Virus record (IMG/VR): IMGVR_UViG_3300014208_000003
Span: 94,263-158,262 of that record
DNA from: a virus
Direction: 5' to 3' (one strand)
DNA length: 64,000 nucleotides
The stretch's first letter is position 1; each line of letters opens with the position of its first letter. This document shows positions 1-63,484 of the stretch, in pieces. The position numbers and the translations under genes are program-made. The notes under the pieces are model-generated. The model was not told where the DNA came from, did no database searches, and saw only the letters and a list, made by a program, of their open reading frames with translations.

Positions 1-169
1 TGGTATAACGGATTCTCTTTTCTGAAACAGCATTCTTCCGGAGTTTTTCTAATACAAAGACTAATCATATCACCACACTCATTATGCTTCAAACAAAACC
101 ACCGCAAATCTTCTATCAATGGGTTAAGTTCTTTAATAGTGAACAACACACCTTTATTAAAATCATTTT

Positions 170-1126
170 TCATACGCACCCAATCAGTTCAAGAATACAC
201 GCTGCTATATGGATTTCTTTATCATTAGCGAAAGAATGCCATTTCATATAATCCGCAATAATTAATATAGCTTTTCCTTGATTTTCTTTAGGAAGCATTG
301 GAATAAGGTTGTCGAATAATTCTCTGTACAAATCATCTATATTAACGTTATTTTCGATTATATATTTTCTTGCATTAGTCAGATCCCTATCCATAATAAA
401 TTTAAAGAACTGTTCCTGTAAATTTATTGTTGTGAAAATATTCGAATCAATTTTCCCATACATTTCGGAATATAGAGAAAGAGTATTAATCATCCGTCTA
501 ATATCAGGATAAAATTTCTCGACAACTTTTACCAATACGTCTTCATCATAAATTACTTTTTCAAAATCCAATATCCCTTTAAGTCTCTTTAATATTTTTG
601 GTTTTAACTCTTCAACAACTTCTTTCAAATCAAACGCAAAAGGAATATTCTGGCAACGCGATTCTCTGAGAGGTTTAATAATTTTATGAATATTATTTGA
701 AGTAAGTATGAAACGACAATATTTATGATACTCTTCTATAAATGCTTTCAATGCGTCTTGGAACGTATCAGATGCACGATCACACTCATCTAATATCACA
801 ACCTTCATTTTTGTTTTAGACCCTATTCCGACACTCATTACAAACCGTTCTATTTCGTTCCTGAGTGTATCAATAGAACCGGACTTTGAAGCATTGATGT
901 AAAGATGTTGTGCACCTATTTCTGTACAAAGAGCTTTAGCAGTAGATGTTTTACCAGTTCCGGGACTTGTACTATAAAAAAGCATGTTCGGAATATCTTT
1001 TTTATTAACCTGTTTCGTGAAGAAGGTTTTTAATGTAGCGGGTAAAACAAGATCCTTAATAGATTTTGGTCGGAACTTTTCTACCCATAATATATTTGCC
1101 ATTTCTTGTTTACTCATTACATACAC
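170..1126 (-). CDS. Clamp loader AAA+ subunit (T4 gp44 / RFC-small-like)
   Basis: LWVEKFRPKSI N-terminus, Walker A PGTGKTS, Walker B VILDECD, ESRC motif. Confidence 0.93.
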   Translation of the reverse strand: MYVMSKQEMANILWVEKFRPKSIKDLVLPATLKTFFTKQVNKKDIPNMLFYSTSPGTGKTSTAKALCTEIGAQHLYINASKSGSIDTLRNEIERFVMSVGIGSKTKMKVVILDECDRASDTFQDALKAFIEEYHKYCRFILTSNNIHKIIKPLRESRCQNIPFAFDLKEVVEELKPKILKRLKGILDFEKVIYDEDVLVKVVEKFYPDIRRMINTLSLYSEMYGKIDSNIFTTINLQEQFFKFIMDRDLTNARKYIIENNVNIDDLYRELFDNLIPMLPKENQGKAILIIADYMKWHSFANDKEIHIAACILELIGCV

Positions 1127-1427
1127 TCTTTCTCAAATCTTTCGATGATACATATCCTATAAAAATCTTTTCTGTTTTATAATATTGGGAACATCTTACT
1201 AAAAATGATGCGTAGTAATTTCTAAGTTTTTCCGGAATTTCTACCCAACAAACAGGAGCTTTTTCTTTGGCTTCTTTAATACCTATTTCTAAATCAAATT
1301 TATCACCTTTTTTATAATTCACTAGAGAATATCCAATCTGAACTCCATTATTAACTTTTTCACCATAGAAGATTCCGAGTCGTTTTCCGTTATCATCTCG
1401 AATATAAGAATAAATAAAATTTTGCAT
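1110..1427 (-). CDS. Hypothetical phage protein
   Basis: ORF in operon with upstream AGGAC RBS-like sequence. Confidence 0.6.
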   Translation of the reverse strand: MQNFIYSYIRDDNGKRLGIFYGEKVNNGVQIGYSLVNYKKGDKFDLEIGIKEAKEKAPVCWVEIPEKLRNYYASFLVRCSQYYKTEKIFIGYVSSKDLRKSVCNE

Positions 1428-1434
1428 ACACGTC

Positions 1435-1824
1435 CTATTTTAAATTAAATGGCGAAGTTGTACTGTTATACGCATTTTCGCCCATAAATTTTTTAGCAAA
1501 CCGCAAATCCTCTATATTTGGTTTGAGTCTATTTTCTATCAACCCACACTTTGTACATTTAACTGTATACGCCTCTACGTACTTAAAAAGCCTTGTACCA
1601 TCATCTTTGAAGTGTCCAAACCAAAAGACTTCTCCCACACCATTATTATCGAAATACTTTAATTTGTGATGTTTAACTTTACACCCAATATTAATAAAAG
1701 GAAACGGTAAATATAGAATCCACCAACAAGTACACAAAAGAGGCAAGAGAAAGTAAACACTAAAGAAAAAAATAATATAAGTCATATATACCTCAAAAAT
1801 AAAGGTGATCCGATTAAAGACCAC
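1435..1824 (-). CDS. Hypothetical membrane-anchored protein
   Basis: Hydrophobic N-terminal segment and a CTKC motif; true start probably the internal Met (MTYII). Confidence 0.5.
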   Translation of the reverse strand: MVFNRITFIFEVYMTYIIFFFSVYFLLPLLCTCWWILYLPFPFINIGCKVKHHKLKYFDNNGVGEVFWFGHFKDDGTRLFKYVEAYTVKCTKCGLIENRLKPNIEDLRFAKKFMGENAYNSTTSPFNLK

Positions 1825-1835
1825 CTTTTTAATAA

Positions 1836-2084
1836 TTACTTCTTTTTTGCAGGATTCCGGAACAGCTTATAACCTCTTGTAGTTGGTTTAAGTCTTGATT
1901 CCGCTATTACTGTTTCTCTGCCTGTTTTAATATTTTCTACAAGAACATGCGATTGATGGATATGTAGAATTCTCAGGCTTCTCTTCTCTCTTCGTCTATC
2001 AGCATCCAACCAGATCTGACCTTTCCTAACAGTTTTCTTCTTTGTCATCGAAACTCCTATTTTTTGAGATTTTGGTATATACAT
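1836..2084 (-). CDS. Hypothetical basic protein
   Basis: Operonic ORF; likely start at MTKKK after GGAG. Confidence 0.5.
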   Translation of the reverse strand: MYIPKSQKIGVSMTKKKTVRKGQIWLDADRRREKRSLRILHIHQSHVLVENIKTGRETVIAESRLKPTTRGYKLFRNPAKKK

Positions 2085-3212: not shown

Positions 3213-3216
3213 GAGG

Positions 3217-3789
3217 TTAACTGACTTGATCTTTTATTATGTAAATGTAATCGTAAAGTTTTAATCTGAATTCTTCTGTTTTATTATATCCACACGTTTT
3301 AAATTCTGGACACAAACCATTTCTATAGATACATTCCGGAACACAGACAGAAACTAATTCCGGTTCTTTTGTTTTAAGCATATCTAGAAATGATTGCCAT
3401 GCTTTTGTTGTTTCTGGATGAGCCTGTTTACAAAGACGTTTTCTGGATATGCTTATTATAGATTGTGCGTTGGCTATACAATTATGATTTACAGGAACGG
3501 ATTGAATTAAACTATCTCTATTCTTTCCTGTTCGATCATCTCTTTGTGTGGTGACGAAATGTTCTGTATTATTTTTAGAATGTCTCACAAAATGAACGGA
3601 TATCCAAGACTTTATTCCTTTCCATGTCCAATCTATCATCTTCTTTCTTATCGGGGAATGTTCGGAAAGATATAATTTCTTTAACCAACTTCTAGACGGT
3701 GGTTCTAATGCACTCGGTTTATTTACAGTGTTCCTAGCTGCATCTAACATCTCTTTATTGTTATTTGATATGTAATTTATTTTAATCAC
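3217..3789 (-). CDS. thyX: FAD-dependent thymidylate synthase ThyX-like
   Basis: SEHSPIR, SVHFVRH and SRKRLC motifs typical of phage Thy1 proteins. Confidence 0.7.
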   Translation of the reverse strand: MIKINYISNNNKEMLDAARNTVNKPSALEPPSRSWLKKLYLSEHSPIRKKMIDWTWKGIKSWISVHFVRHSKNNTEHFVTTQRDDRTGKNRDSLIQSVPVNHNCIANAQSIISISRKRLCKQAHPETTKAWQSFLDMLKTKEPELVSVCVPECIYRNGLCPEFKTCGYNKTEEFRLKLYDYIYIIKDQVS

Positions 3790-4340
3790 ATCTTCTCCAC
3801 TATTTTATCTGCAATACCGTATTTAATAGCTTCTTCGGGAGTTAACCATGTGTCGGTTGGTTGTAGTAAAAAATCAATAATTTTCTCTTTATTTTTCTTT
3901 ACTGTTAAATGTTTTCTATAATGATTTCTAATTTGTTTCGCTGTTATTTCGAATGCTTTTGTCGCTCCTAATAATTCATGTTCTTTTCCATGACTTCCCC
4001 AAGAATATTGATGAGAAAGGATCAAAGTGTTTTTTGTAATCGTTCTGGTGCCCTTTTCTCCTGTCATGAATATCAACAATCCACACGAACAAATCTCCCC
4101 TAAACCTATTGTCTGAATCGGTATTTTTGAAAATTCCATAAAATCAGTTAAACCAAAAGAGGCTGTTATTAATCCACCCGAAGAATTTATATATAATTTT
4201 AATTTAGATCTTTTTATAGGATTTATATTTTCTTCTATAATCCATTCTATGCTAGGTTTCACTGTCGCGGTTGATATATCTTCCGTCAATAACATTATAC
4301 CACAATCTTTTAAACTTTTTGAATCTTTAACTGGCTCCAT
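3786..4340 (-). CDS. clpP: ClpP-like serine protease (copy 1)
   Basis: YINSSGG, GEICSCG (Ser), ILSHQ (His), DTWLTPEEAIKYGIAD (Asp). Confidence 0.88.
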   Translation of the reverse strand: MEPVKDSKSLKDCGIMLLTEDISTATVKPSIEWIIEENINPIKRSKLKLYINSSGGLITASFGLTDFMEFSKIPIQTIGLGEICSCGLLIFMTGEKGTRTITKNTLILSHQYSWGSHGKEHELLGATKAFEITAKQIRNHYRKHLTVKKNKEKIIDFLLQPTDTWLTPEEAIKYGIADKIVEKM

Positions 4341-9541: not shown

Positions 9542-10546
9542 ATGGGAAAGAAAAGATTAACAACAGAAGAATTCGTTCAAAGAGCAACAGAAATTCATGG
9601 CGATAAGTACGATTATTCAAAGGTAATATATCTTAATACAATGGCTAAAGTCAATATAATTTGTAAAATACACGGAGAATTTCAACAAACACCAAATAAA
9701 CATTTAAGTCATGAGCATGGTTGTCCGTATTGTGGTAATAATGTGATATTAACAACAGAAATATTTTTAGATCGATCAAAAGTAGCTCTTGGTGATAGAT
9801 ATGATTATAGTCAATCTGTATATGTGAATAGTTCAACACTTATTAAAATAAGATGTAAAGAACATGATCTTTGGTTTAATCAAAGACCGAGAGAACATAT
9901 TCTAGGTCAATTAGGTTGTAAAACATGTAGAGATATAATAGCTCATAATAAATTCGCCAAAACCACCGAACAATTTATAAAAGAAGCACAAGAACTACAT
10001 GGCAGTATAAGATATTCTTATCATAAAACAAAATATAATAAGGCGTTGGAAAAAGTAGAGATTGTTTGTAATAAACATAACATGTCTTTCTTTGTAAAAC
10101 CGTCACACCATTTAAGAGGAATAGGATGTCCTTTATGCAATTCTTCGTTCGGAGAGAGAATTATTAAACTATTTTTAGATAATAATAAAATACAACACAT
10201 ACACCAAAAACGTTTTTATGATTGCAGAAACAAAAAACCGCTACCGTTTGATTTTTATTTACCGGAACACAATACATGTATTGAATATGACGGTGAACAA
10301 CATTATTTTCCAGTTATAAGATTTCAGAAACATTACGTTACAGAACAAAATGCAATAAAAATACACGAAACTGTAAAAATACACGATTCTATTAAAACAA
10401 AATATTGCGAAGATAATAATATAAAATTACTAAGAATATCATATACACAAAGAGATGATATAAAAAATATTCTTAGTAAATATTTATTAAATAATCATCC
10501 ACATTTAGAAAATGTACACTGTGAACATTTTACACAACCATCGTAA
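9542..10546 (+). CDS. Free-standing homing endonuclease (repeated YDYSK/CxxHG..CPxC modules plus C-terminal PD-(D/E)xK/Vsr-like domain)
   Basis: Repeats 'HGDKYDYSKV..ICKIHGEF..GCPYC'; catalytic 'PFDFYLPEHNTCIEYDGEQH'; overlaps the nrdJ 3' end in antisense. Confidence 0.85.
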   Translation: MGKKRLTTEEFVQRATEIHGDKYDYSKVIYLNTMAKVNIICKIHGEFQQTPNKHLSHEHGCPYCGNNVILTTEIFLDRSKVALGDRYDYSQSVYVNSSTLIKIRCKEHDLWFNQRPREHILGQLGCKTCRDIIAHNKFAKTTEQFIKEAQELHGSIRYSYHKTKYNKALEKVEIVCNKHNMSFFVKPSHHLRGIGCPLCNSSFGERIIKLFLDNNKIQHIHQKRFYDCRNKKPLPFDFYLPEHNTCIEYDGEQHYFPVIRFQKHYVTEQNAIKIHETVKIHDSIKTKYCEDNNIKLLRISYTQRDDIKNILSKYLLNNHPHLENVHCEHFTQPS

Positions 10547-14164: not shown

Positions 14165-14616
14165 GATGGAAAAAGAGATGTTTCGGAAATAACTACGAAT
14201 TCAAAACCTCTATCGGAACAGAATTCTTTAGCAGTTTTCCATTTATTTTGATTTTTGATATAGGTAGCGCATTCATTTAGATAATTTGCTTTTGATTTTT
14301 GAGTAACATTTTTTGGTTTTCTTGGTGGAATCATTTGTTTTTGTGGTTTGATTTCTACTATGAATTTCCGGATCTTTTTAAATTTATCTATAGCTTCGAA
14401 GTAGAAATCCGGATAATATTTATGAGTCTTTTTATCTAGTTCATAATAATAGGGAATTACTAAACATTCCGATCCCCATTTCAATACATTCGGGGAGTGA
14501 TCGAAATATTGTATTGCTCTTAATTCCCATGATGATCTATAGTGAGGTGGTTTTTCTCCTATATATTTACTTTTATTAACCACCTCATAATCACCATCAA
14601 GCCACTGTTTTCCCAT
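14161..14616 (-). CDS. Head completion nuclease (T4 gp4-like)
   Basis: YRSSWE, WGSE..IPY, YYPDF, VEIKP, NQNKW. Confidence 0.88.
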   Translation of the reverse strand: MGKQWLDGDYEVVNKSKYIGEKPPHYRSSWELRAIQYFDHSPNVLKWGSECLVIPYYYELDKKTHKYYPDFYFEAIDKFKKIRKFIVEIKPQKQMIPPRKPKNVTQKSKANYLNECATYIKNQNKWKTAKEFCSDRGFEFVVISETSLFPS

Positions 14617-15245
14617 TAGATTATCTCGTCAACTAGTCCATATTCCAAGCATGTTTTTGAATCGAACATTATATCATGCTTTAGAAGTTCGTTTAATTTT
14701 GCTTTAGGAATTTTTGTGTGTTCCAGATATATTTCTTTAATCAGTTTCATTTCATCGTGAACATTACTCATACCATCTTTTAATTCTTCATATTTTCCCC
14801 ATACACCTCCAGATAATTGGTGTATAAGAATTCTGGAATGTTTGTGCATGAGTCTTCTGGAGCATACGCAAGATATAAGTGATCCAGCAGAAGCAGCCAC
14901 GCCATCGACAATAGAAACAACATCTACTTTTTTCTTTAGGTTTATAATATGATCTACACAAGCAAGTCCAGCATATAATTCGCCACCGTTAGAATTGATA
15001 TGTAGAAAAACTTTATCCTGAACACCTTCTACGATAATTGCTTGTGTAATGACTTGATTAGATATACCATGAAGAGTTTTATTTAATTTTAGAACAGAGT
15101 CTCTAGTAATTTCGGAATAAAAATAAACTCTATTATCGACCACTTCTAGATAGGTTGGTTCGAGAAAAGATAAATCTGGAGTTATATCGGGAGTTGGTTC
15201 GCATCTGTTAAAACTAAATTTCTTACTTCCAAAATTACTATGCAT
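14616..15245 (-). CDS. clpP: ClpP-like serine protease (copy 2)
   Basis: HINSNGG, GVAASAGS (Ser), ILIHQLSGG (His), HDIMF..CLEYGLVDEI. Confidence 0.88.
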   Translation of the reverse strand: MHSNFGSKKFSFNRCEPTPDITPDLSFLEPTYLEVVDNRVYFYSEITRDSVLKLNKTLHGISNQVITQAIIVEGVQDKVFLHINSNGGELYAGLACVDHIINLKKKVDVVSIVDGVAASAGSLISCVCSRRLMHKHSRILIHQLSGGVWGKYEELKDGMSNVHDEMKLIKEIYLEHTKIPKAKLNELLKHDIMFDSKTCLEYGLVDEII

Positions 15246-16545: not shown

Positions 16546-17349
16546 TCATTGTCTCTCCATGAATTCTTTGTTTCTGAATGAAATATTTGGAATCATATTT
16601 AACTTATGTTTTTCAATTCTATCTATCGCTATCTTCCAGTATTTCTCTTCTTTTTCAATTCCAATGAAATTTCTTTTGGTAGATAAACACGCTATTGCGG
16701 TTGTTCCGGAACCTATGCAATTATCTAAAACAGTATCACCTTCATTCGTATATGTTTTAATCAAATATTCAAATAACGCAACTGGCTTTTGAGTAGGATG
16801 TACAGCGTTTTTATCATTAGGAAAGTAAATTAAATCTATAGGATAATTTTCAAACTCTTGTATATATGCTTTATGTGAAGGTCTTGGTGCTTTAAAAGAA
16901 TGTTCGTTTGTTGTACTATAATCACAACCACTTCTTTTCTTAGTACATGGAGTTAAACCTTGTGGATTATATAACATTCTTCTTTCTGATTTGTTAGCTG
17001 TTGTACCATTAGAAAAAACTAAAATATCTTCATGCTTTTTCATTGGTTTATTTTTCACATTCATACAATCACCAGCGTTTGATTTTTCCCAACACCAAGC
17101 ATATTTCAGCATTTCTATATTTGATGCTCCTAAAGCTGTTGTAAAAGGTTGACTTGCTGTTAAAACTATAGCACGATTATCTTTTATTATTCTTTTATAT
17201 TGTTCCCAAAGAGGTTTAAAAGGAATTACTGTGTCCCATTTACAAGCAGTAGTTCCATAAGGCAAATCACAAAGTATCATATCCACACTTTTATCTGGAA
17301 TGTACATCATCGCCTCGAGACAATCACCTAAAATTATTTCATTTAGCAT
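16546..17349 (-). CDS. DNA amino-methyltransferase (N4/N6 class beta)
   Basis: CDLPYG, HPTQKP, VLDNCIGSGTT. Confidence 0.9.
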   Translation of the reverse strand: MLNEIILGDCLEAMMYIPDKSVDMILCDLPYGTTACKWDTVIPFKPLWEQYKRIIKDNRAIVLTASQPFTTALGASNIEMLKYAWCWEKSNAGDCMNVKNKPMKKHEDILVFSNGTTANKSERRMLYNPQGLTPCTKKRSGCDYSTTNEHSFKAPRPSHKAYIQEFENYPIDLIYFPNDKNAVHPTQKPVALFEYLIKTYTNEGDTVLDNCIGSGTTAIACLSTKRNFIGIEKEEKYWKIAIDRIEKHKLNMIPNISFRNKEFMERQ

Positions 17350-18002
17350 ACTCTCTCCATGAATTCTTTGGTTAAAACATTCTCCGGACTTTTTTTGGAA
17401 ACTTTCTGGAATACTTGTTGTTGTTTAGGATTTAATGTACTCAGATCAATTATATTATTTCTTAGCTTCAATTCTGTTTGTAATAATTTTGCTATCCACC
17501 ATGCATCTATTATATCACTTTTAGGAGAATCAAAATCATTCAACCAGTTCAAATCAATCTGTTCATCTTTATTCGGATACATATTATAAGCACTTTGCAT
17601 GGCCACTTTATTAGAATTGCCTTTTAACGTCGAAAATAATTTTATCGTTGTCGGCTCGTACACTCTCATTTTAATACCCATCATGTAAACAGAAAGCTTG
17701 ACATTTCCGCAATATTCCGCTATGTCAAAAACAAGACCTTTAGATGAACCAAAAGAATATCCTTCGACTGCCGCATAATCCGATCCAAAAACAAATTCGG
17801 AATATTCTCCTTGCATAAATTCAAACTGGTCATAATTATTGTTAAAATCCTTCTTCCGGAAATAATGTATATGATCATTCGTTAATTTTTTTACAGTATT
17901 AAATCCGAGATAATCTACTTTTGTTATTTCTAATTTATCATCAAGAACAAACTTTACAAAACCGGGGCTGTTGATACTTAAATCCAAACCACATATAATC
18001 AT
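17343..18002 (-). CDS. RuvC-like Holliday junction resolvase
   Basis: GLDLSINSPG, AVEGYSFGS, KGNSNK, DIIDAW. Confidence 0.8.
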   Translation of the reverse strand: MIICGLDLSINSPGFVKFVLDDKLEITKVDYLGFNTVKKLTNDHIHYFRKKDFNNNYDQFEFMQGEYSEFVFGSDYAAVEGYSFGSSKGLVFDIAEYCGNVKLSVYMMGIKMRVYEPTTIKLFSTLKGNSNKVAMQSAYNMYPNKDEQIDLNWLNDFDSPKSDIIDAWWIAKLLQTELKLRNNIIDLSTLNPKQQQVFQKVSKKSPENVLTKEFMERVC

Positions 18003-18976
18003 TTTCTTTCCTTAAACTGAATTGATGGGATCTTGTTCTGTTTATATTTAAGGATTCTATTTTCTGCTATTTGTATATATTCCGGATTTAATTCACAACC
18101 AACATAATTCCGATTATTTTTAAGAGCAACGATAGCAGTAGTTCCGGAACCCATGAAAGGATCTAATATCAAACCATTTTCCGGACATCCTGCTTTAATA
18201 GGTGTTTCAATCAATTCTTCCGGAAATACTGCGAAATGAGCTTCTGTAAAAGGTTTTGTAGGAATATCCCAAACACATCTTTTATTTTTCGTGGTATAAT
18301 TATTATGAACAAGACCACCCATTTTAGTTCTACCGGGTGTGTTATTTAATCTTGTATCGTCTCTATTCCGAAAAGTGTTATCTGTACTGGTTGCTTCTTC
18401 TTTTACCGAATCCTGATCAAAATAATACTTCTTAGATTTTACCAGAAAGAAAATTTCCTCAAAGTCAACCGTGAATCTGTCTTGAACACTCTGAGGCATT
18501 GCATTTCTTTTATACCAGATTATTTTGTTTCTTAAAATCCACCCTCTATTAGTCATTTCAATAGCAAATCTAGAAGGAATTTGTAATAGGCATTTATCAG
18601 AAGAATAACTATCACCCAAATTTACAAAGCATGTTCCTTCTGATTTCAATACTCTCTTTACCTCTTCAAACAAATCACACAACTTATTCACATATTCTTC
18701 CGGAGTATTTTCAAGACCTATTTGTTGATCTATTCTTTTTGCACCACATTTTTTACATATACCAGTAAATACACCATAAGTAACACGTCCAAAACAATTC
18801 TTACCACCTTTATTATCTCTCATATGATTACAGTCACTATTTCCACCTTCCCAATTCGCTGTTTTATAATCTCGGAGTCCGTAATAGGGAGGACTAGTAA
18901 CACAGCAATCAATAGAGTCATCCGGAAGTGTTTTCAAAATGTCTAAGTTATTGCCTTGGAATATTTTGTTCGTCAT
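17999..18976 (-). CDS. DNA methyltransferase, probably N4-cytosine
   Basis: VTSPPYYG, HFAVFP, ILDPFMGSGTT. Confidence 0.88.
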   Translation of the reverse strand: MTNKIFQGNNLDILKTLPDDSIDCCVTSPPYYGLRDYKTANWEGGNSDCNHMRDNKGGKNCFGRVTYGVFTGICKKCGAKRIDQQIGLENTPEEYVNKLCDLFEEVKRVLKSEGTCFVNLGDSYSSDKCLLQIPSRFAIEMTNRGWILRNKIIWYKRNAMPQSVQDRFTVDFEEIFFLVKSKKYYFDQDSVKEEATSTDNTFRNRDDTRLNNTPGRTKMGGLVHNNYTTKNKRCVWDIPTKPFTEAHFAVFPEELIETPIKAGCPENGLILDPFMGSGTTAIVALKNNRNYVGCELNPEYIQIAENRILKYKQNKIPSIQFKERK

Positions 18977-19977
18977 ATTAAAACCTTATCATAAAGACTA
19001 TTGGTGAAATATGTTCTCAATTCGCGAAACGAGAATGAAAACTTGTTCAAAGCCAAACACACATCGTTCATATCCCATTTCTTCCGTTCACCTAATCCGT
19101 TATCTTTCAAAAATTTATTCCATAAGAAAACATATTTACCATGATTTAACATTTTCTTACTGGCTATTCTTCCTGCTTCATCTCCGTCCAATAAGTAATA
19201 GCATTTTAACGGTTCTAATTTTTGTTTAACACTATTCGTAAAAGCTGTTCCTAAAACTGCTACGGAATTTTCTATCATCAAAGAATCGATAATGCCTTCT
19301 GTTACAATTACCGGATTTTTAATATCAATAAAATCTATGTTATATATTGCTTTATCCCTATCCAATAACCGATTTAAATATTTCGGTTCCTGTTCTTTTA
19401 ATGCTCTTGCCTGATAATAATAGATCTTGTTCTTTGAATCATAAAACGGAATCACTAATCTATCCTTATAACTACCATCAACGGCTATAAACCATTTCTT
19501 CCAAACATTTTCCGGAATATGCCTTTCAATACAATATTTTATAGCATTATCGAAAAGATCTCCGGAACCTTTTAGAATATTAACAAAATGAATTACTTGT
19601 TCCTGTTCATATTCTAATTTCTGTATTCTTTGGATAGCTTCTTCTTTTTCTAATTCCTGTTTTAAATTCCTCTCATACTCTTTCAAATTAACAGGATTTT
19701 CTAAAATACATTCTCTAAGATAGGACTGATATTCTGAGAAAAAATATTCCTTTAACCATTTTTCAACAGGGATCGAAACATTACAATTATGACAGATATA
19801 TGTTGGATGCTTATTAAAAAGAAAATATCCTCTACGTTTAAAAGAATTTGTCTTGGAATCACCACAAACGTTACACCTGATATTTATATATTCTGATGTT
19901 ATTTTTGACTTTCTAAAATTATTCCGGACAACCTGTAATATGTATTTTTTTAAAAGAGAAGTTTTGAATAAGTTCAT
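18973..19977 (-). CDS. DNA primase (T4 gp61-like)
   Basis: RCNVCGDS..CHNC zinc domain, RLVIPF, YQARAL, TEGIIDS, DGDEAG TOPRIM. Confidence 0.92.
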   Translation of the reverse strand: MNLFKTSLLKKYILQVVRNNFRKSKITSEYINIRCNVCGDSKTNSFKRRGYFLFNKHPTYICHNCNVSIPVEKWLKEYFFSEYQSYLRECILENPVNLKEYERNLKQELEKEEAIQRIQKLEYEQEQVIHFVNILKGSGDLFDNAIKYCIERHIPENVWKKWFIAVDGSYKDRLVIPFYDSKNKIYYYQARALKEQEPKYLNRLLDRDKAIYNIDFIDIKNPVIVTEGIIDSLMIENSVAVLGTAFTNSVKQKLEPLKCYYLLDGDEAGRIASKKMLNHGKYVFLWNKFLKDNGLGERKKWDMNDVCLALNKFSFSFRELRTYFTNSLYDKVLI

Positions 19978-20495
19978 CTTGGTTTTAAAATAGATGTTAA
20001 AGATGGAGTTGGATCGTTGTTTATATATGCGTCTAATTGTTCCGAAGTTATTTTTAAGACATCCGTTCTACCATCAAAAACCACTATCATAGAATCGTGC
20101 ATTGGTGCCGACCCTTCACCTACCATTACACCATAAGTATTGATTCCCTTGAAAGAAACCCTGCCTTCAATAAAACACATAGATGTATAATTTGGTTTTA
20201 TAACTTCATGGAATAATTTTGTTGATGTGCTAACGGGGATGAGAAAAACACATAATTTATTCTTACAACTTTCTTCAACACCTTTCTTAACAAAATTATC
20301 TTTAGACGGTGTGGAATATGGAGGATTAATAAAATTTCTTGTTTTCCAATCTATATGTATACCATTCCACGCTGAAAGATCATGATTTATCGGACAAGGA
20401 TCAAATTGAAAATCAAACAATGTATTAAGTTTATTATAAAGATATTTCGGTGTTTTCCAATTATCCTTATGTTCTATATTTCTGTTTTTCATCAA
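19974..20495 (-). CDS. Phage N6-adenine DNA methyltransferase
   Basis: DNWKTP, FDPCP, FINPPYS, LIPVSTST, GRVSF. Confidence 0.85.
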   Translation of the reverse strand: MMKNRNIEHKDNWKTPKYLYNKLNTLFDFQFDPCPINHDLSAWNGIHIDWKTRNFINPPYSTPSKDNFVKKGVEESCKNKLCVFLIPVSTSTKLFHEVIKPNYTSMCFIEGRVSFKGINTYGVMVGEGSAPMHDSMIVVFDGRTDVLKITSEQLDAYINNDPTPSLTSILKPR

Positions 20496-26016: not shown

Positions 26017-26200
26017 TTTTATTTAATAATTGTTTTATAATCAATATATTTTCTAAATTTGAATCGATGTATTCTACCATAATAGTTTTAGTATTTTTAT
26101 TTTGATAAGAATTTAATATCTTTCCTTTTTTGAACCAATTGAAAGCAGTTTTGTAACACACATTTTTAATTTTAGCATATTCTGATAATTTTATTATCAT
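25982..26200 (-). CDS. Small MerR-type HTH protein (resembles the IS607 TnpA N-terminal HTH)
   Basis: KLSEYAK..VCYKTAFNWFKKGKI. Confidence 0.65.
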   Translation of the reverse strand: MIIKLSEYAKIKNVCYKTAFNWFKKGKILNSYQNKNTKTIMVEYIDSNLENILIIKQLLNKIEKNIKGEKCD

Positions 26201-31133: not shown

Positions 31134-31153
31134 ATTAACCTTTATGTAAAAAT

Positions 31154-32032: not shown

Positions 32033-32035
32033 GTT

Positions 32036-32076: not shown

Positions 32077-32083
32077 TCTATAT

Positions 32084-32479
32084 CTACCTCTTTCTTATTT
32101 TTATTTTATGAGAAGAAGAAAATCCGGTGTCCCCTACTCCGATCTCTATGTCAAAAAAAGCAACATTAAAATTATTCAGATTCGGTGTTATATCTCTTTT
32201 TTCGTATTTGTGTTGTAAAAAGGAGAGTTCTTTCTGAATATCTGTTTCGCAAAGATAAACATTGGCAGCTTTCTTATTCTTTATTTCCTGATATTCTTCC
32301 TGATATTTTTTTATAACAGGTACACCATATATATCTGTTATTTCCGATTGTCCTGTTTGATCCTTTTCGTAATATATATGTCTGTATTTGTCTATATGAT
32401 GTTTGACTTTTCCGTTAGCATCAAATTCCCAAAAATGAAATTTCCTGTCATCATAATCATAGTAAGTTCCTGCAAACAT
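32084..32479 (-). CDS. Family B DNA polymerase, N-terminal fragment
   Basis: TDIYGVPV, ETDI and ExoI VAFFDIEI motif near the C-terminus. Confidence 0.85.
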   Translation of the reverse strand: MFAGTYYDYDDRKFHFWEFDANGKVKHHIDKYRHIYYEKDQTGQSEITDIYGVPVIKKYQEEYQEIKNKKAANVYLCETDIQKELSFLQHKYEKRDITPNLNNFNVAFFDIEIGVGDTGFSSSHKIKIRKR

Positions 32480-44647: not shown

Positions 44648-44910
44648 TTCAAACTTTCTTTGTAACGTATCAGATCAATTTCGAAAAAAGGATTTGAAAT
44701 ATATTCCCAAATCCTTTTCATCACTTCTTCCGGAACATCTTTTTCAAAAACCTCTTTATAATCACTTCTACCACCTTGTATTATCCTAGAACAATAATTA
44801 TTATCTTTGTATCTTTCGGACGTCAAACAAACACCAAACCAAATTTGATCTTCTACTTCTATCCACCATGCATCAGAGTGTTCAGAATATTCTATGTATA
44901 ATTCCTTCAT
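44644..44910 (-). CDS. PFFEIDL-tag family
   Basis: EKDVPEEV..NPFFEIDLIRY. Confidence 0.8.
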   Translation of the reverse strand: MKELYIEYSEHSDAWWIEVEDQIWFGVCLTSERYKDNNYCSRIIQGGRSDYKEVFEKDVPEEVMKRIWEYISNPFFEIDLIRYKESLK

Positions 44911-47096
44911 TCTATCTCTATTCGACTAAAACCATTCACTTTCTTTATTCCGATCCTTCTGTCAAATAATTCTGTATCAAATGTTCTGTGACTAATGATA
45001 TAATAGCTCTGGTTATCTTTGGACATTGCCTTTAAACATAACATCATTTTATCAAGACCTTCTCCATCAACAGCACCATCTAAAAGTTCATCAATAAAAA
45101 GAAGGTTACTATTCCAATTACAGATCATTTTAACAATCTCAATAAATGTAAACAGAATTGATATATCTACTCTTTTCTGTTCTCCTCCGCTCAAAGAATC
45201 ATAACCAACAGGATCGAATCTACTGGCTGTCATATTAAAAACCTTATCTTCCATCTGTTCATCAAAAATTACTTTCAAAGGTAATTCAAATTTATTCAGG
45301 TATTCATTTACTTTAACATTGAACAGAGGAATCAGCTTCTTCATAAAAAATGATTTGATACCAGTTTCGGATAAAATCTCTTGAACAACCAATGCTTCAT
45401 TCAAATCCTTATCAATAGTTTTTGTTGTTTCATATAGCTCTTTGTATTCAGAACATTTTCCTTTAAATGATTCCTCTAATTCTTCAATATTCATTTCAAA
45501 TTTTCTTTTACCGATATCCAGAATTCTATTATTACATTCAACCATCTCTTTTTCGGAATTACTTATTTTCAGACCAATCATTTTAATATCGTTTTCAATC
45601 TTCTGTTTCTGAATCTCTTTTGTCCGAATGCCTTTTACCAATTCTTCTTTCTCTTTCAAACCATCATTCAAAACAGTTACTTCGGAATCTATTTTTATAA
45701 TTTCTTCCTGAATCTCTTTTATCTTTTCGTCCGATATTTCTAATAACTGTTTCTGTATCTCTTTTAACTCATGTTCCAGACCAGCCCTTTCAACAGTCAA
45801 TACCTTTAATTCACTTTCTTTGGATGATCTTGACTCATTGTTCTGTTTAATAGTTTTGATTTTAAGAACCAACTCAGAAATATTTTTGGTGTTATCTGCT
45901 ATTTTCTTTTCACGATCTTCAATAGTAATTCTTAAACTATCTATCGTATCCATTTTATCCACACCATCTATCGCTTCTAATGATTGATAACAGGTAGGAC
46001 AAACATCATTATCCTGTAAAAACTTTCTTTTGGTTTTATCAGAAGAATTATTAGAAACCATTAATGCATTCTCTGTTTTATACTCGCTTACTTTTGTTTC
46101 TAATTCCTGATATTCTTCTTTCTTCAACCATTCAAAATCCTTTTCTATATCAACTTTTTTCAAATCATATTCCGAAATACTCTTCTGTAACTTTTCGGAT
46201 TTTTCTTTAAGAGTAGTTTTGGAAGATGCCTTTGTAACAATCTCTTTATTCAGAACTGTCTTGGATGATAATTTTTCGGCAATATCTTTCGTAAATTGCC
46301 GAATATTAGTTTCTGCTTCTTCTTTACTTTCAATTTTAATAGTGCTAAGAGTCGTTTCTAAAGAGGATAATTCAGAAGCATATATAGTGAGACGGTCTGA
46401 AATATCTTTAATTGTAGACTCTTCTTTTGTTGTATCATCTAATTTCTGCTTATCAAAATTTTCTAGGGCTTTCTTTGTCTGGGTTATATTATTTCGCATC
46501 TGTTTTATAGACTCTTCTAAAACAGTAATTATTTTTCCGTTAGTATCTTTTTGAATCTTTAATCCAGAAATATCCTTCTTAAGACTTTTCAACATCTCAC
46601 CGAAAACTTTTATATTAAAAATGCTTTCAACAATATCTCTTTTTTCCTGAAGCTGCATTTTTAAGAAAGGCTTATTCTGATTAACAGATAACACTAGGAT
46701 CTGCTTGAATAACGTGTAATCTATCCCAAGAATTTTATCAATCTCGTCCTGAATCAATTTTTTTGAAGAAAGCAATTCTAGTTCCTGATCATTCTTATAT
46801 ATTTTAACACTATCCGGTGACATGGTTCTGACTATTCTGTACTCTTCCGAAGCAATATTGAAAAAGCATTCCGTGAACAATCCTTTTTTATTTGTCTTGT
46901 TTATAAGCTCTTTTAATTTAATATCTCTGTAAGGTTTTCCGTAAAGATTGTATGTGAGTGCTTCGGTGATACTTGACTTTCCGCAACCATTCGCAGCAGA
47001 TACATTTATTAGTCCATCATCAAATACAACTTCTGTGATATTGTTTCCATAAGACATGATATTAGAGAATCTTATTTTCTTAAACTTAATGAACAT
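44907..47096 (-). CDS. Recombination ATPase (gp46, Rad50/SbcC-like)
   Basis: NGCGKSS, coiled coil with CPTC hook, LSGGE, FIDE, ISH. Confidence 0.93.
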   Translation of the reverse strand: MFIKFKKIRFSNIMSYGNNITEVVFDDGLINVSAANGCGKSSITEALTYNLYGKPYRDIKLKELINKTNKKGLFTECFFNIASEEYRIVRTMSPDSVKIYKNDQELELLSSKKLIQDEIDKILGIDYTLFKQILVLSVNQNKPFLKMQLQEKRDIVESIFNIKVFGEMLKSLKKDISGLKIQKDTNGKIITVLEESIKQMRNNITQTKKALENFDKQKLDDTTKEESTIKDISDRLTIYASELSSLETTLSTIKIESKEEAETNIRQFTKDIAEKLSSKTVLNKEIVTKASSKTTLKEKSEKLQKSISEYDLKKVDIEKDFEWLKKEEYQELETKVSEYKTENALMVSNNSSDKTKRKFLQDNDVCPTCYQSLEAIDGVDKMDTIDSLRITIEDREKKIADNTKNISELVLKIKTIKQNNESRSSKESELKVLTVERAGLEHELKEIQKQLLEISDEKIKEIQEEIIKIDSEVTVLNDGLKEKEELVKGIRTKEIQKQKIENDIKMIGLKISNSEKEMVECNNRILDIGKRKFEMNIEELEESFKGKCSEYKELYETTKTIDKDLNEALVVQEILSETGIKSFFMKKLIPLFNVKVNEYLNKFELPLKVIFDEQMEDKVFNMTASRFDPVGYDSLSGGEQKRVDISILFTFIEIVKMICNWNSNLLFIDELLDGAVDGEGLDKMMLCLKAMSKDNQSYYIISHRTFDTELFDRRIGIKKVNGFSRIEIE

Positions 47097-51141: not shown

Positions 51142-51559
51142 TTTTATTTCTCTGTTTTGTTACAATATAAGGGTTTAGTAATTTGAACATTTTAAAGGCT
51201 TCTTTTTCGTGTTTCGGAGTGATTTTTAATATTCTTTTTCCGGATTGGTTTGGATATAATTGTGTTTCGGAAATATTTGTTAAGAACCATTCTGCCTTAC
51301 CTCTTTGAATAGTCACTACAGTAGTTTTTCTTGGATATTTGTACGTATTTGCCACAGGTATTCCGGAACCATATACAAAAGATATTCCGGAAGTTTTTGA
51401 GTAAGGGATATACAAAGCTTTTATTTTATGATGCGTCACGGAAACAACATTTACAATCTCTTCAAAAGTTGTTAGAGTATGTTCCGTAGCATTTCCGTTA
51501 ATGGCTTTTAATGCCTGTTCGATTTTGTCTTTGTTTTCTATTGAGATTTTAATTTTCAT
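51122..51559 (-). CDS. Hypothetical phage protein
   Basis: Operonic ORF. Confidence 0.55.
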   Translation of the reverse strand: MKIKISIENKDKIEQALKAINGNATEHTLTTFEEIVNVVSVTHHKIKALYIPYSKTSGISFVYGSGIPVANTYKYPRKTTVVTIQRGKAEWFLTNISETQLYPNQSGKRILKITPKHEKEAFKMFKLLNPYIVTKQRNKNDQKSK

Positions 51560-56474: not shown

Positions 56475-57932
56475 ATGAAGAAATTAATGCTAACAGAACA
56501 GTATATGATGGAACAAAAGGATCTTGCTTCTATGGTTTACGAATATTTGAAAAGTAATCCTAATCCAAAAGATAAAGAACTACACGATTGGACCGAAAAG
56601 GAAAAATTAGATGTTCATGAAGTAGAATCCGAAATATACAAATTAGCAACCAAATTTGTACAGCATGGTAAAGAAGAAATTGGCGAAAGCATTGTTGAAG
56701 AATCTACTCTCTCGAAACAAGTTGTGGATTATTTAGACAAGAGACATTCCGGAGATGCTACAGAAGCTAAAAAAGTAAGAGATGCATTAAAGAAAAAGCT
56801 CGGTAATAACTTTGTGAAAACTCTTCTGAAACACGGTGATCCTGATACTGATGGTTTTGATGTTGTTAGAAAGAAATGGCTAGATGAAGATGTTGGTGTA
56901 CTTTCCGGAACTATTCAGAAAAGTATTCCGGAAGAAGTTGTTGAAGCTTATAAAGCAAAATTGGTTGTTGCTGATATGCCTTCTGTAATAAAAAATATGT
57001 TTCCAAAAAATAAATATACAAGCGCAGAGAAAACAGAATATTACTTGGTAACAGATTCTAATAATAAAGAAATTGGTAGAGTTAGTGTATACGATGCTAA
57101 TAATGAAAAAGAAGCGATAGAATTCATTAAAAATAAAGAATCTGTCAAAGAAGGTGTAGAAGAAGCTTATTCTGATTTGTCTGAACTTGAAAAAGAATAT
57201 GATTCCAAAAGTATAGAAGAATTGGTTAAGCTAAAAAAGAAACTATACTCTAATGTTGATATATCTTCTCCGAAGTCACCCGAAGAAAAAGCACTAGAAA
57301 GAATCATATCAAAAAAATTCAGTGATTTAAATCAAGAAGTTATAAAAAGAAGAAATGCTAAAAAAGAAGCTGTTAAAGAAGGCGTAGAAGCAGATCCGGA
57401 AGATATCGAAACAATGTTAAAAAATATGAAACCTAATACAGATACAGTTTTCGTTCTCCAAAAAACAGTCGGTGGATATAGTGCGGTTAGATATAATAAA
57501 AATCAAGTTGTATTAAATAAAGAACCTATTAAAGAATCTTTCGGAAGCTTTTTGAAACAGAAGGCATTTTTTAAAGAAGATGCTGGTGTAGATGGTTTTC
57601 CTTTTGCAACAGAAGCAGAAGCCCTAAAGGATCCGCAACCACTTCTAGACCCAACCTCTTCAACAGACAGAGAGATACGCGGGAGCACTTCAGATTCATT
57701 CAAAGGCATAGCTATAGCAAAGGGTGTCACTGAAAAAGATGTTAACGCCAAAGAGCTTAAAGACGGCATCAAGATAGAAATGGAACACACTAATGATCCT
57801 ATTGAAGCAAAACAGATAGCATTAGACCATTTAGCAGAAGTCGGGGAATGGAACGAAGATAAAACAAAATTCACTCATAAACCATATTACAAAGAATTAA
57901 AGAAGTTGGAAAAGAAACTGGAGAAAAAGTAA
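56475..57932 (+). CDS. Putative capsid-internal polyprotein (C-terminal DUF5661-like domain)
   Basis: Modules separated by (I/V/L)xE-(S/G/A); GIKIEMEHT..IALDHL.E..YY. Confidence 0.6.
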   Translation: MKKLMLTEQYMMEQKDLASMVYEYLKSNPNPKDKELHDWTEKEKLDVHEVESEIYKLATKFVQHGKEEIGESIVEESTLSKQVVDYLDKRHSGDATEAKKVRDALKKKLGNNFVKTLLKHGDPDTDGFDVVRKKWLDEDVGVLSGTIQKSIPEEVVEAYKAKLVVADMPSVIKNMFPKNKYTSAEKTEYYLVTDSNNKEIGRVSVYDANNEKEAIEFIKNKESVKEGVEEAYSDLSELEKEYDSKSIEELVKLKKKLYSNVDISSPKSPEEKALERIISKKFSDLNQEVIKRRNAKKEAVKEGVEADPEDIETMLKNMKPNTDTVFVLQKTVGGYSAVRYNKNQVVLNKEPIKESFGSFLKQKAFFKEDAGVDGFPFATEAEALKDPQPLLDPTSSTDREIRGSTSDSFKGIAIAKGVTEKDVNAKELKDGIKIEMEHTNDPIEAKQIALDHLAEVGEWNEDKTKFTHKPYYKELKKLEKKLEKK

Positions 57933-60833: not shown

Positions 60834-60857
60834 AAAAATATAAAAGGAGAACTGTTT

Positions 60858-61334
60858 ATGAAGTCAATTACAATGAAGAACAAAGAGATCCTAACACTAA
60901 CAAAACAACTAACTGAAATTAAGGATAAAAATCTAGGTAAATCCATTAAATTTCAATACGCTGTTCTAACCAATCTGAGGAAAGTCTTTACATTAAAGTC
61001 CGAACTAATAGAAGAATCAAAAGTAAGTAGATTAAAACAATTTGAATCTGATAAACAAGAACTTACTATAAAATATGCTTTGAAAGATGATTCCGGAAAA
61101 GCAATAGTCAGTCAAAATGAAAACGGTCAATTCGTAACTATTCCGGAAGATAACAAACCATTATTAAATAAAGAGATGATAGAACTTTTTGAAAAATATT
61201 CCGGAACGTTAAACGAAGTGGAATTATTTCTAAATACTAATGATGAGTTTGAAGTACATGATATTGATGTTGGCGATTGTGAAGGAATAGATATCAAAAC
61301 AATGGATGCTATATATCCGTTACTAAAAGAATAA
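60858..61334 (+). CDS. Hypothetical protein in the late operon
   Basis: AAGGAG RBS. Confidence 0.6.
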   Translation: MKSITMKNKEILTLTKQLTEIKDKNLGKSIKFQYAVLTNLRKVFTLKSELIEESKVSRLKQFESDKQELTIKYALKDDSGKAIVSQNENGQFVTIPEDNKPLLNKEMIELFEKYSGTLNEVELFLNTNDEFEVHDIDVGDCEGIDIKTMDAIYPLLKE

Positions 61335-61343
61335 GAGGGAAAT

Positions 61344-62201
61344 GTGACACGAATAGAAACTGGTAAAGCAATAAAAGATATAGTTAATTATAGAATTGAT
61401 GATATCGGTATTAGTGGTCTTCCTGTTAAACTTGATCTTTATAACGAGACAGCTAATACATGGTTTACTGGTTCTGTTTGGCAAGCATCAAAACCAACCA
61501 GTCTAACTATGACAGATGATGGTGCTAAATTCAATGGTAGATATTATTACGCATGGACACCGAATTTAGACGGCTATTATGTCGCGTTTTCATATTGTGT
61601 ATCCGGTGGTTTTGAATTTGAACACGAGAACGATTATGAAGCAGTTACTTTTGTTAATAATGTTCAAGCAATTTCGGGAACAATAACTACCGTAAACACT
61701 AATGTAAATACTGCCAATACAAATATTCTCGCACTTTCCGGAACATTAAAAACAGTAGATTCAAACGTAAATACTATATCAGGAAATATTAATACTGCTA
61801 ATGCAAATATATTAACAATCTCTGGTAATCTTAATACTGCCAATACAAATATTCTCGCACTTTCCGGAACATTAAAAACAGTAGATTCCAGAACAACTAG
61901 TATGCAAACGGTTCTGAATACTGTTGATTCAAATGTGGTTACTATATGCGCCGATATTGAAGATGATGTTTTCCTACAATTAGATACTATAGAAGATTTA
62001 GTGCGCTCTTTTGCAAATATAGGTTCAATTTCTGCTGATATACTTTCGGGAGGAATTTATGAACAAAATGTAATAATCAAAGACATAGATATAAACGGAA
62101 CAGATGTATATGTTGTTTATCAAAATGTTGACGGAAAATTAAAGGTAGTTCAAACTCCATTTAATCAAGGTGTTATTATAGCATCGGGAGTAGGACTATG
62201 A
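61344..62201 (+). CDS. Structural fibre/coiled-coil protein with N/T-rich 14-aa-period repeats
   Basis: Repeats NTANTNILALSGTL. Confidence 0.55.
   Translation: MTRIETGKAIKDIVNYRIDDIGISGLPVKLDLYNETANTWFTGSVWQASKPTSLTMTDDGAKFNGRYYYAWTPNLDGYYVAFSYCVSGGFEFEHENDYEAVTFVNNVQAISGTITTVNTNVNTANTNILALSGTLKTVDSNVNTISGNINTANANILTISGNLNTANTNILALSGTLKTVDSRTTSMQTVLNTVDSNVVTICADIEDDVFLQLDTIEDLVRSFANIGSISADILSGGIYEQNVIIKDIDINGTDVYVVYQNVDGKLKVVQTPFNQGVIIASGVGL
61707..61888 (+). repeat. 56-bp perfect direct repeat (61707-61762 = 61833-61888)
   Basis: Identical sequence offset by 126 bp (42 codons). Confidence 0.85.
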
Positions 62202-63484
62202 ACGAAAACACAATAAATAAAATACAGACATTTTTTAAACATTTTGAGGGTGTTGACAGTAACGGTGCTAGAATTATTTATTTCGATGCAACTGCTGTAA
62301 ATCAAGATAGCTATTTCATGGGTAATCTTGGTATTAGAAAAACAGATCCGGTATATAATTTTGATGTGTCTGGCTCTTCTAATTCGGATTCTCTGTATAT
62401 TAGTGGTGTACGTAAAGATTTAAATTGGAATACAGCATATACATTAACACAATCTTTATCAGCTACCAGTTTATCGGGAGTTAGTACAAATACAACATTA
62501 TTAGGAGTTGGTACTGTAGCAAATCCATTATATGTAAATCCTAATCTCAATCTTACTTCGTTAAGTGCTACAAATATTTCCGGAACTAACATAATATCTA
62601 GTAATTTTGGTTTATCTGTATCTGGTGACGTTTATATAAAAACAAATAATCTAAACAGACTGGTCGCAAAAGGTAATGGTTATATCGGAATAGGTACAAC
62701 GACACCAGCAGAACAGGTTGATGTGGTAAGTACTGCCGGAACCAATATCAGAATTGGTAACACAGCATTAGGAGATTATGGGCGAGTTTTGCTGCATGGC
62801 AATCGCACCGGAGCAGATCAGACAATTGGCGCGATTTTAACATATCAGAATTCTTCAGGCAGTCCCGTTTTAGGAGGAGAAATTCGATTTGCACACAGAG
62901 GAACATCAACAGACAGTAAGACCGGATTGATTATTCAGTTAAACGACGGAACAAATGTTAATTATGTCGGCTACATAGACGAAACGGGTAAGTGGGGACT
63001 CGGTACTTCTTCTCCTGGACAAAAGCTCTCGGTTGTTGGAGATGGATCTTTCACGACCGGACTAAATGGTAGACTGTATCTAATTTCTAACGACGGTACA
63101 AACGACACTGTACACACGGGCATAAGAGCACAAACAGATGTAACAGCAAGATATGCCGAAATAGTTGCTAAAAGAGGAGCATCTAGCAACGTATTAGGCT
63201 GGGAACTTAAAACATATAATTCTGCTTATATTGATGCCATGACAATTCTTGGTAATGGCAATGCTGGTTTTGGTACTACAGCACCGGCAGAAAAACTTGA
63301 AGTAGCAGGCAACATCAAGGGTAACGCTCTACAAATCAACGCCGACTCTGGCACGGCTGACACGGATGATGCTTTGTATTTTGGCGGTCGTACAACGGAC
63401 GGAAGCGGACGCATAAGGTATGATGCAGCAACGCAAACGTTTTATCTTGAGAAACGCGCCTCTGGAAGTTGGGTAGCTGCATGA
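62198..63484 (+). CDS. Tail fibre-like protein
   Basis: Repeated G.(I/L/F)G(I/T)..P...L.V.G beta motifs; G/S/T-rich. Confidence 0.7.
   Translation: MNENTINKIQTFFKHFEGVDSNGARIIYFDATAVNQDSYFMGNLGIRKTDPVYNFDVSGSSNSDSLYISGVRKDLNWNTAYTLTQSLSATSLSGVSTNTTLLGVGTVANPLYVNPNLNLTSLSATNISGTNIISSNFGLSVSGDVYIKTNNLNRLVAKGNGYIGIGTTTPAEQVDVVSTAGTNIRIGNTALGDYGRVLLHGNRTGADQTIGAILTYQNSSGSPVLGGEIRFAHRGTSTDSKTGLIIQLNDGTNVNYVGYIDETGKWGLGTSSPGQKLSVVGDGSFTTGLNGRLYLISNDGTNDTVHTGIRAQTDVTARYAEIVAKRGASSNVLGWELKTYNSAYIDAMTILGNGNAGFGTTAPAEKLEVAGNIKGNALQINADSGTADTDDALYFGGRTTDGSGRIRYDAATQTFYLEKRASGSWVAA

Follow-up and report, generated by a model that had tools for sequence, protein, structure and literature searches.

The first highly iterated palindromes came to light decades ago. 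What they do has still to be explained (Elhai 2015, PMC4390886), and the cyanobacterial examples, HIP1 (GCGATCGC) and its alternates, are 8-bp palindromes that recur about once every 0.5 to 1 kb in all reading frames and in spacers, are maintained at the DNA level against codon preference, vary at their two outer positions around an inner 6-mer that forms a hard core, and share their genomes with an orphan methyltransferase. A second described system of interest is protein p6 of phage phi29, which binds with one dimer per 24 bp and one monomer per 12 bp in A/T-rich minor groove, nucleates on a bendability pattern, and coats the genome (PMC10899789). Here we describe an iterated palindrome, TCCGGA, which shares the listed features of HIP1 and whose sequence surroundings are a counterpart to the geometry of p6. 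It lies in a 64,000-nucleotide stretch of viral DNA, positions 94,263 to 158,262 of IMG/VR virus record IMGVR_UViG_3300014208_000003, which we call the window.

The record is complete and has direct terminal repeats, and its last 64 kb form the window; the whole phage genome measures 158,262 bp at 31.7% GC. A T4-type replication and recombination set is encoded in the window (family-B DNA polymerase, gp44-like clamp loader, gp61-like primase, and gp46/47-like nucleases), and UvsX, gp41, and gp32 are encoded in syntenic sister contigs. No near relative of the phage was found in the phage collection. Expected counts were taken from dinucleotide shuffles for the window and from a Markov-1 model for the genome, and the codon controls were a synonymous-codon shuffle within genes and a codon-order shuffle.

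An iterated palindrome enriched at the DNA level

The window holds 102 exact copies of TCCGGA between positions 37 and 62584, about half of them in the form TTCCGGAA, against 7.6 ± 2.8 in the shuffles (maximum, 16), and each sits at the dyad of a flank pattern with a period of ~12.3 bp. Genome-wide, 301 copies were counted where 16 to 20 were expected, along with 160 copies of TTCCGGAA against an expectation of 2.4 to 2.9. TCCGGA was the top over-represented hexamer (z = 35 in the window and 63 in the genome), and these expectations together with the hexamer ranking rule out chance or base composition as the source of the excess. An earlier note on this DNA, made from its letters alone, had claimed about 100 sites and a signal acting on the DNA in all codon phases; both claims stood up, and the enrichment persisted under synonymous and codon-order shuffling alike.

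No other 6-bp palindrome was clearly enriched, and most were depleted. In the window, AGTACT was present once (10.8 expected), TGATCA 7 times (28.6 expected), and CAATTG 8 times (27 expected), and more than 15 GC-containing 6-bp palindromes had zero copies. The phage is under ordinary restriction-avoidance pressure while enriching one palindrome.

The real unit is the octamer TTCCGGAA. The T_A context holds 301 of the 435 CCGG tetramers in the genome, and all single-base variants of the octamer were enriched, 9- to 32-fold at the outer positions and 2- to 7-fold at the inner ones. This clustering of variants at outer positions is as Elhai described for iterated palindromes (PMC4390886) and bears out the earlier suggestion of a HIP1-like word. 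Among the features by which such palindromes are recognized (Elhai 2015), octamer excess at a density of about one per kb or more, presence in all frames and in non-coding DNA, and outer-position bias were found in the phage. For another, a methyltransferase that is specific for the inner sequence and encoded by the same genome, the phage offers a candidate in its SPPY enzyme, described below.

Coding DNA contained 272 sites, whereas the synonymous shuffle gave 68 ± 7.5 and the codon-order shuffle 30 ± 5.5. By frame, 153 sites were read as xxT CCG GAx, 86 as TCC GGA, and 32 as xTC CGG Axx, and a further 30 were intergenic. Codon choice shifted sharply where a site could form: the CCG share of Pro codons rose from 18% overall to 66% in NNT-Pro-Glu/Asp, the CGG share of Arg codons rose from 5% overall to 45% in xTC-Arg-Axx, and Ser-Gly pairs were written TCC-GGA in 87 of 234 cases (12.6 expected). 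The Pro-Glu dipeptide itself was 2.17-fold over-represented. Both shuffles and these codon-context tables rule out codon or amino acid usage as the source, and they reveal pressure on the DNA itself that suffices to remodel synonymous positions and amino acid pairs over 158 kb. A small paralogue family, whose C-terminal tag carries VPE (GTT CCG GAA), was considered as a single source and rejected: these small proteins, ending VPE...DPFFEID, supply only about 30 to 40 sites, and the flank pattern survives when small genes are left out.

Nothing relevant was found in the literature searched that treats TCCGGA or TTCCGGAA as a signal in microbes or phages. Iterated palindromes of other phages (AGTACT in jumbo coliphages, ACGGCCGT, GGCGCC, and CCCCCGGGGG) differ from this one in both word and phage group. 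HIP1 itself differs in its word and in its cyanobacterial rather than AT-rich phage setting; neither a phase lock to a 12.3-bp lattice nor a spacing rule, both of which mark the phage sites, is reported for HIP1 in the text searched.

A 12-bp A/T lattice and a 24-bp spacing rule

When A-minus-T skew was averaged around the 301 sites, it traced a damped antisymmetric oscillation with a period of ~12.3 bp that extended ~50 bp to each side. Counted from the end of the motif, the right flank favored A at +1 to +3, +12, and +25 and T at +6 to +7, +18, and +31, an alternation that continued to about +50; the left flank was the mirror image of this profile. Sites of each reading frame, taken alone, showed this pattern, as did the 30 intergenic ones. 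The amplitude of the pattern grew with the quality of the core, from ~0.12 around generic TT....AA through 0.2 to 0.3 around single-base variants and TTC..GAA to 0.3 to 0.35 around TTCCGGAA.

The rhythm was not confined to the sites. Genome-wide, the A-minus-T autocorrelation peaked at lags of 12 (0.047, nearly equal to the value at lag 1), 24, 36, and 48 and dipped at 6, 18, and 30. The pattern survived masking of ±60 bp around all sites and was present in third codon positions and non-coding DNA. The power spectrum had a broad peak at 12.25 to 12.5 bp, 2.2 times the median, where that of T4 was flat; because the peak was broad, with no sharp line at 12.0, the rhythm is not a codon artifact. 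A+T content lacked a 12-bp period, the rhythm being carried by A/T strand asymmetry. A lattice index of 0.044 fell to 0.023 ± 0.001 upon synonymous shuffling and to 0.000 upon codon-order shuffling, so that about half of the lattice signal resides in synonymous choices. Amphipathic-helix periodicity was rejected as an explanation, since the period is ~12.3 and not 10.8 bp, the rhythm is present in third positions and non-coding DNA, and synonymous shuffling halves it. T4 and the relatives compared below showed no more than the weak pattern usually seen, with lags of 9, 12, and 21. Abel and Mrazek (2012, PMC3431218) reported that phage genomes generally lack strong periodic signals, including those related to curvature, and against that background this clade is an exception. 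Local site density tracked lattice strength (rho = 0.48, P = 4e-4).

The symmetry of the flanks proved to be statistical. The two flanks of individual sites had 953 complementary matches, compared with 1019 ± 22 predicted from the average profile; they are no more complementary than the profile requires, which fits two independent half-sites of a dimer. The same comparison excludes an origin by hairpin, cruciform, or template switch, and together with the small share of sites that come from one paralogue family it speaks against a dispersed repeat, MITE, or hairpin element.

Sites also kept their distance from one another. No neighboring sites in the genome lay 6 to 21 bp apart (9.0 expected), whereas 16 lay 22 to 26 bp apart against 2.8 expected, a 5.7-fold excess. 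Pairs in the window's site list include those at 51362 to 51391 (24-bp spacing), 56904 to 56932 (23 bp), and 42566 to 42597 (26 bp). The same rule emerged from permissive contexts, defined as amino acid pairs able to carry a site without protein change, of which ~35% are occupied at baseline. Occupancy by distance to the nearest other site was 0 of 27 below 22 bp, 18 of 34 at 22 to 26 bp, 2 of 13 at 27 to 33 bp, and 8 of 14 at 47 to 51 bp. The junction palindromes TT..AA, TC..GA, and TTC..GAA peaked at 11 to 12, 23 to 25, 36, 48, and 60 bp from a site, center to center. With amino acid context held fixed, a flank-phase score that took the lattice phase of the flanks only and ignored the central 14 bp averaged 3.66 in used contexts and 0.94 in unused ones (P = 3e-19), and across quintiles of this score occupancy rose from 18% to 57%.

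In a large non-coding region between diverging small-gene operons, outside the window, sites form 3-site arrays with 22- to 26-bp spacing; TTCTAGAA also occurs there 11 bp from TTCCGGAA, and TTCTAGAA-N3-TTCCGGAA units are repeated. This region (G000:C1:61891-62186 and 64328-64856) holds 15 sites and resembles an operator or origin array. Separately, an unrelated 111-kb viral contig, IMGVR_UViG_3300044959_000237, ends in a ~2.8-kb array (L185:9178-11976) of the 24-bp tandem repeat AAAATGTTCCGGAACATATCGGGT, which has the same palindrome core and the same 24-bp spacing that the phage prefers.

Both the palindrome and the lattice recurred in one sister lineage. It comprises contig L007, whose DNA polymerase is 70% identical to that of the phage, and contig L239, which has 90 to 96% nucleotide identity to L007. 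These contigs carried 37 sites in 14 kb (L007) and 53 in 17.7 kb (L239), where about 1 to 1.5 were expected. Their lattice index and flank phase matched those of the phage, and their sites were never closer than 23 bp. Neither palindrome excess nor lattice was observed in T4 or in five relatives with DNA polymerase identities of ≤49%. Within orthologous genes, the phage and L007 had 6 sites in common, 15 were private to L007, and 3 were private to the phage, many of the private ones accompanied by amino acid changes. L239 and L007 had 16 sites in common and few differences, all in locally divergent tracts. Isolated templated conversion was considered for the three aligned site differences between these two contigs; they sit in generally divergent tracts and are evidence neither way.

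A putative protein lattice and competing explanations

The explanation we prefer, which falls just short of probable, is that the TCCGGA sites are anchors of a dimeric protein lattice working like that of phi29 p6. In it, (T)TCCGGA(A) would be the high-affinity, dyad-symmetric anchor of a putative DNA-binding factor, phage or host encoded, that would assemble on the phage chromosome as a regular array, touching the DNA about every 12 bp, with each dimer covering ~24 bp. The clade would have adapted its genome to this array, with A-rich and T-rich runs alternating at a ~12.3-bp period throughout resident DNA and, roughly every 0.5 kb, one T-to-A junction of the rhythm bearing the perfect core TTCCGGAA. 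The pressure acts on DNA, overriding codon preference and altering amino acids. The likely purpose of the array would be to organize, compact, or mark the phage chromosome. The short arrays of sites described above, in the non-coding region outside the window, may have a second role in regulation or as part of an origin.

A dyad core, independent half-flanks, a ~12-bp sub-period, ~24-bp spacing, an exclusion zone, and arrays in a control region together make up the kind of grammar that a cooperative dimeric DNA-binding protein would impose. We infer from it both that a protein reads the pattern and what the pattern would be for. Among the functions floated in the earlier note, protein binding is newly and strongly favored by the 12-bp lattice, by the exclusion of sites within 22 bp, and by the 24-bp spacing, and nothing points to the packaging role that it also proposed for the palindrome. 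A more sweeping version, on which we are more tentative still, is a sequence-encoded "chromatin code" in which the 12.3-bp lattice, with a TTCCGGAA anchor per ~0.5 kb, would be read by a putative dimeric protein of ~24-bp footprint, unrelated to p6, that coats or organizes the whole T4-like chromosome.

The likeness to the p6 complex lies in the sequence counterpart only, that is, the spectral peak at 12.25 to 12.5 bp, the preferred spacing of 22 to 26 bp, and the lack of spacings below 22 bp. In p6, organization and regulation are combined in a genome-wide complex, for which a phage counterpart is predicted from sequence. The differences are equally plain. The phage has no member of the p6 family (PF17548; no match at E ≤ 1), it belongs to an unrelated family with an unrelated replication mode, and its core is sharply specific (among 315 occurrences of TTCNNGAA, the center was CG in 160, TA in 8, and GC in 1), whereas p6 reads bendability. 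Noc and ParB sites (the Noc-binding site ATTTCCCGGGAAAT and parS) are also palindromes, built from TTTCC-type half-sites and dispersed along a chromosome, and the protein that reads them spreads from its sites. In the phage, the center of the palindrome is 2 bp shorter, copies per kb are far more numerous, and no ParB_N-domain protein (PF02195) was found.

Several observations weigh against a protein lattice. No candidate reader emerged, as the genome has no member of the p6, HU, ParB_N, or RHH_1 families. The 12.3-bp period is out of step with the helical repeat of B-DNA, so that a special geometry would be needed. Selection on about 300 sites and their flanks would be a heavy genome load. 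Finally, TTCCGGAA is hyper-abundant in bacteria that have no lattice, and the two features could have separate causes. One very basic 82-amino-acid (aa) protein (pI 11.3), encoded at 1836 to 2084 (minus strand) beside the clamp and clamp-loader genes, has a weak DUF6354 match. Its fold was predicted to be an SH3/Tudor-like small barrel with basic tails (pLDDT 83), and on this model it may bind nucleic acid. Because its family is widespread and only generic SH3/Tudor matches were found (E ~0.05), it is a weak reader candidate only.

The main rival is a mutational drive of the kind that Elhai modeled for HIP1, which we consider unlikely. Under it, TCCGGA would be the target of the phage SPPY methyltransferase or of a host methyltransferase, and biased mismatch repair linked to methylation would convert near-cognates; the 12-bp lattice would be a separate genome property, with sites arising most easily at T-to-A junctions. 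The clustering of single-base variants at the outer octamer positions, as in HIP1 (PMC4390886), favors this explanation, as does the fast turnover of sites between the phage and its sister lineage. So do bacteria in which the same word is iterated. A bacterial scan for three copies of TTCCGGAA within short gaps returned mostly tandem repeats, together with some genomes in which the excess was dispersed. In five such gut or rumen assemblies, G001 to G005 (loci L024, L051, L048, L109, and L113; samples L218 to L237), TTCCGGAA was counted over the whole genome against a reversed-word control of the same composition. The counts were 1219 against 64 in Ruminococcus G001, 1481 against 0 in Ruminococcus G002, 376 against 40 in Bacteroidales G003, 3692 against 108 in Bacteroidota G004, and 310 against 20 in Clostridium G005, amounting to 9 to 34 times the control outside G002 and up to 1.27 copies per kb. 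CCGGAA, TTCCGG, and TCCGGA were among the most over-represented hexamers in all five. No description of TTCCGGAA as an iterated palindrome of gut or rumen bacteria was found in the literature searched; the shared 8-mer may help narrow the host of the phage.

These five bacteria had no 12-bp rhythm, no flank pattern past +2, and no exclusion zone. Palindrome excess and lattice are therefore separable in principle, and their coupling was observed only in this phage clade. In G004, the bacterium richest in TTCCGGAA, a Vsr endonuclease gene adjoins a C5 cytosine methylase gene (L242:2-1731; G004:C46), and this classical very-short-patch pair, a further point for the drive, could be what produces the excess there. 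Vsr was not found in the other four palindrome-rich bacteria, whose assemblies are incomplete. In the phage, a profile search detected neither Vsr (PF03852) nor a C5 methylase (PF00145), the methylcytosine-dependent repair components of the HIP model, and this absence excludes a classical drive encoded by the phage itself. Very-short-patch repair by Dcm and Vsr, which shapes CCWGG frequency in Escherichia coli, likewise leaves a methylase target over-represented through biased repair; apart from lacking both components, the phage shows an excess and long-range flanks well beyond the known effects of that system.

The phage does encode methyltransferases, and all three genes that the earlier note had counted were present. 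The enzyme set (METHYLTRANSFERASES; n = 3) consists of a Dam-family enzyme, an SPPY beta-class enzyme, and a DLPY enzyme of PF01555. The SPPY enzyme is an orphan beta-class N6_N4 methyltransferase of 325 aa whose motif IV is of the N4-cytosine type (17999 to 18976, minus strand; PF01555, E = 2e-52); among the closest relatives of solved structure are N6-adenine as well as N4-cytosine enzymes. Its gene contains 6 TCCGGA sites, a density among the highest of the genome's genes, and an orthologue 69% identical is kept at the same position in L239, which speaks for a drive and parallels the orphan methyltransferase of HIP1 genomes. The second N6_N4 enzyme (267 aa, motif DLPY; 16546 to 17349, minus strand; PF01555, E = 3.5e-28) is absent from the corresponding position in L239, and the Dam-family enzyme has 172 aa (19974 to 20492, minus strand; PF05869, E = 1.5e-16; phrog_111). 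Contigs encoding SPPY homologues 54 to 56% identical have no TCCGGA excess, a point against the drive, and no close homologue of the enzyme was found in the five palindrome-rich bacteria. No route is known by which N4-methylcytosine feeds a T:G repair drive, which counts further against it.

The arrangement of the sites also speaks against a drive. A process acting on patches of 6 to 8 bp predicts neither the complete lack of sites closer than 22 bp nor the excess at 22 to 26 bp, and it does not predict that occupancy depends on flanks 7 to 42 bp away. Fixed phase, exclusion, and spacing favor a protein lattice over an artifact of repair alone. The two processes may coexist, in that a host-type drive could supply the word and the phage lattice could decide where it is kept. 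Should the chromatin code proposed above be real, no iterated palindrome before this one would have had a structural grammar open to deciphering, and it would offer a clue to the general role of such palindromes.

An improbable alternative is intrinsic DNA architecture without a dedicated reader, in which alternating A/T runs and a CCGG hinge would give a curved or superhelical shape selected for packaging or topology, and TCCGGA would merely be a preferred flexible junction. It accommodates the genome-wide extent of the lattice, its residence in A/T strand asymmetry rather than in A+T content, and the participation of generic junctions. Mechanics alone are insufficient for the extreme specificity of the TTCNNGAA center, a shape code needs no strict 22-bp exclusion zone, and curvature-related periodicity is, as noted above, generally lacking in phage genomes.

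We find it harder still to credit dense self-marking, in which a phage methyltransferase would modify TCCGGA about every 0.5 kb so that a phage nuclease, or a system discriminating host from phage, spares phage DNA. Restriction enzymes of the BspEI/Kpn2I/AccIII class target TCCGGA, the three phage methyltransferases include one of the N4-cytosine type, and several nuclease genes are at hand (RuvC-like, gp46/47-like, and, in L239, TnsA-like), all of which would suit such a system. A cognate nuclease was not identified, phased flanks and a 24-bp rule are unnecessary for marking, and comparable enrichment of its own target has been reported for no known system. Least plausible of all is a Chi-like one-sided signal, in which the half-word CGGAA/TTCCG would be the real unit, for example in taming a host exonuclease, and the palindrome would serve both strands: the half-word is ~2.2-fold enriched outside the palindrome (452 against ~206 expected) and the asymmetric CCGGAA and TTCCGG outscore TCCGGA in the bacteria, but palindrome enrichment is far above the product of two halves, symmetric phased flanks and a spacing rule are foreign to Chi, and T4-like phages have their own recombination system and their own protection of DNA ends.

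Segments without sites

Sites and lattice vanished together from segments that appear to be imported. Three homing-endonuclease genes, a tnpB gene, an intein in the ribonucleotide reductase gene, and the tail-fiber end of the window jointly span 6,641 bp and held no site where 12.6 were expected (P = 3e-6); their lattice index was -0.005. The earlier note had read these same segments as site-free and had proposed that density could separate resident from recently acquired DNA, a use that is sound given the loss of both signals; the two measures combined serve to mark DNA of recent import. Imported DNA without sites is also expected under the mutational drive, if sites accumulate slowly in resident DNA.

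The first endonuclease-like gene (9542 to 10546, plus strand) has a translation resembling that of the second, an HNH/homing endonuclease gene (26197 to 26913, minus strand; phrog_559, E = 2e-54). The third (31154 to 32032, minus strand; phrog_655, E = 2e-35) splits the DNA polymerase gene (28872 to 32479, minus strand), leaving an N-terminal part of 131 aa and a second part of 753 aa; in the sister contig L007 the polymerase is a single 827-aa protein. The LAGLIDADG intein has approximate limits of 11628 and 12978 (minus strand), and the sole site of the ribonucleotide reductase gene, at 13150, falls within the N-extein. The GC-richer tail-fiber end (62590 to 64000, plus strand; phrog_9942) has 44% GC and a lattice index of -0.017.

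The tnpB gene (IS605 OrfB family by Pfam; 33647 to 34924, minus strand) has 38% GC and a lattice index of -0.0075. It adjoins a DHH phosphoesterase gene here and likewise in L007 (L007:2-1237). Since the two TnpB proteins are only 37% identical, their sequences suggest independent or replaced insertions at one hotspot.

Some core genes are also free of sites, as the earlier note had pointed out for gp46. The gp46-like SbcC/Rad50 ATPase gene (44907 to 47096, minus strand; Pfam) contains none and retains the lattice (index 0.050). Two ClpP-family protease genes (3786 to 4340 and 14616 to 15245, both on the minus strand) are without TCCGGA as well. Four genes that lie beyond the window form a 3-kb block (G000:C1:42001-45000) that is free of sites, has a lattice index below zero, and shows a GC content (28.7%) lower than anywhere else in the genome; it is probably another imported segment.

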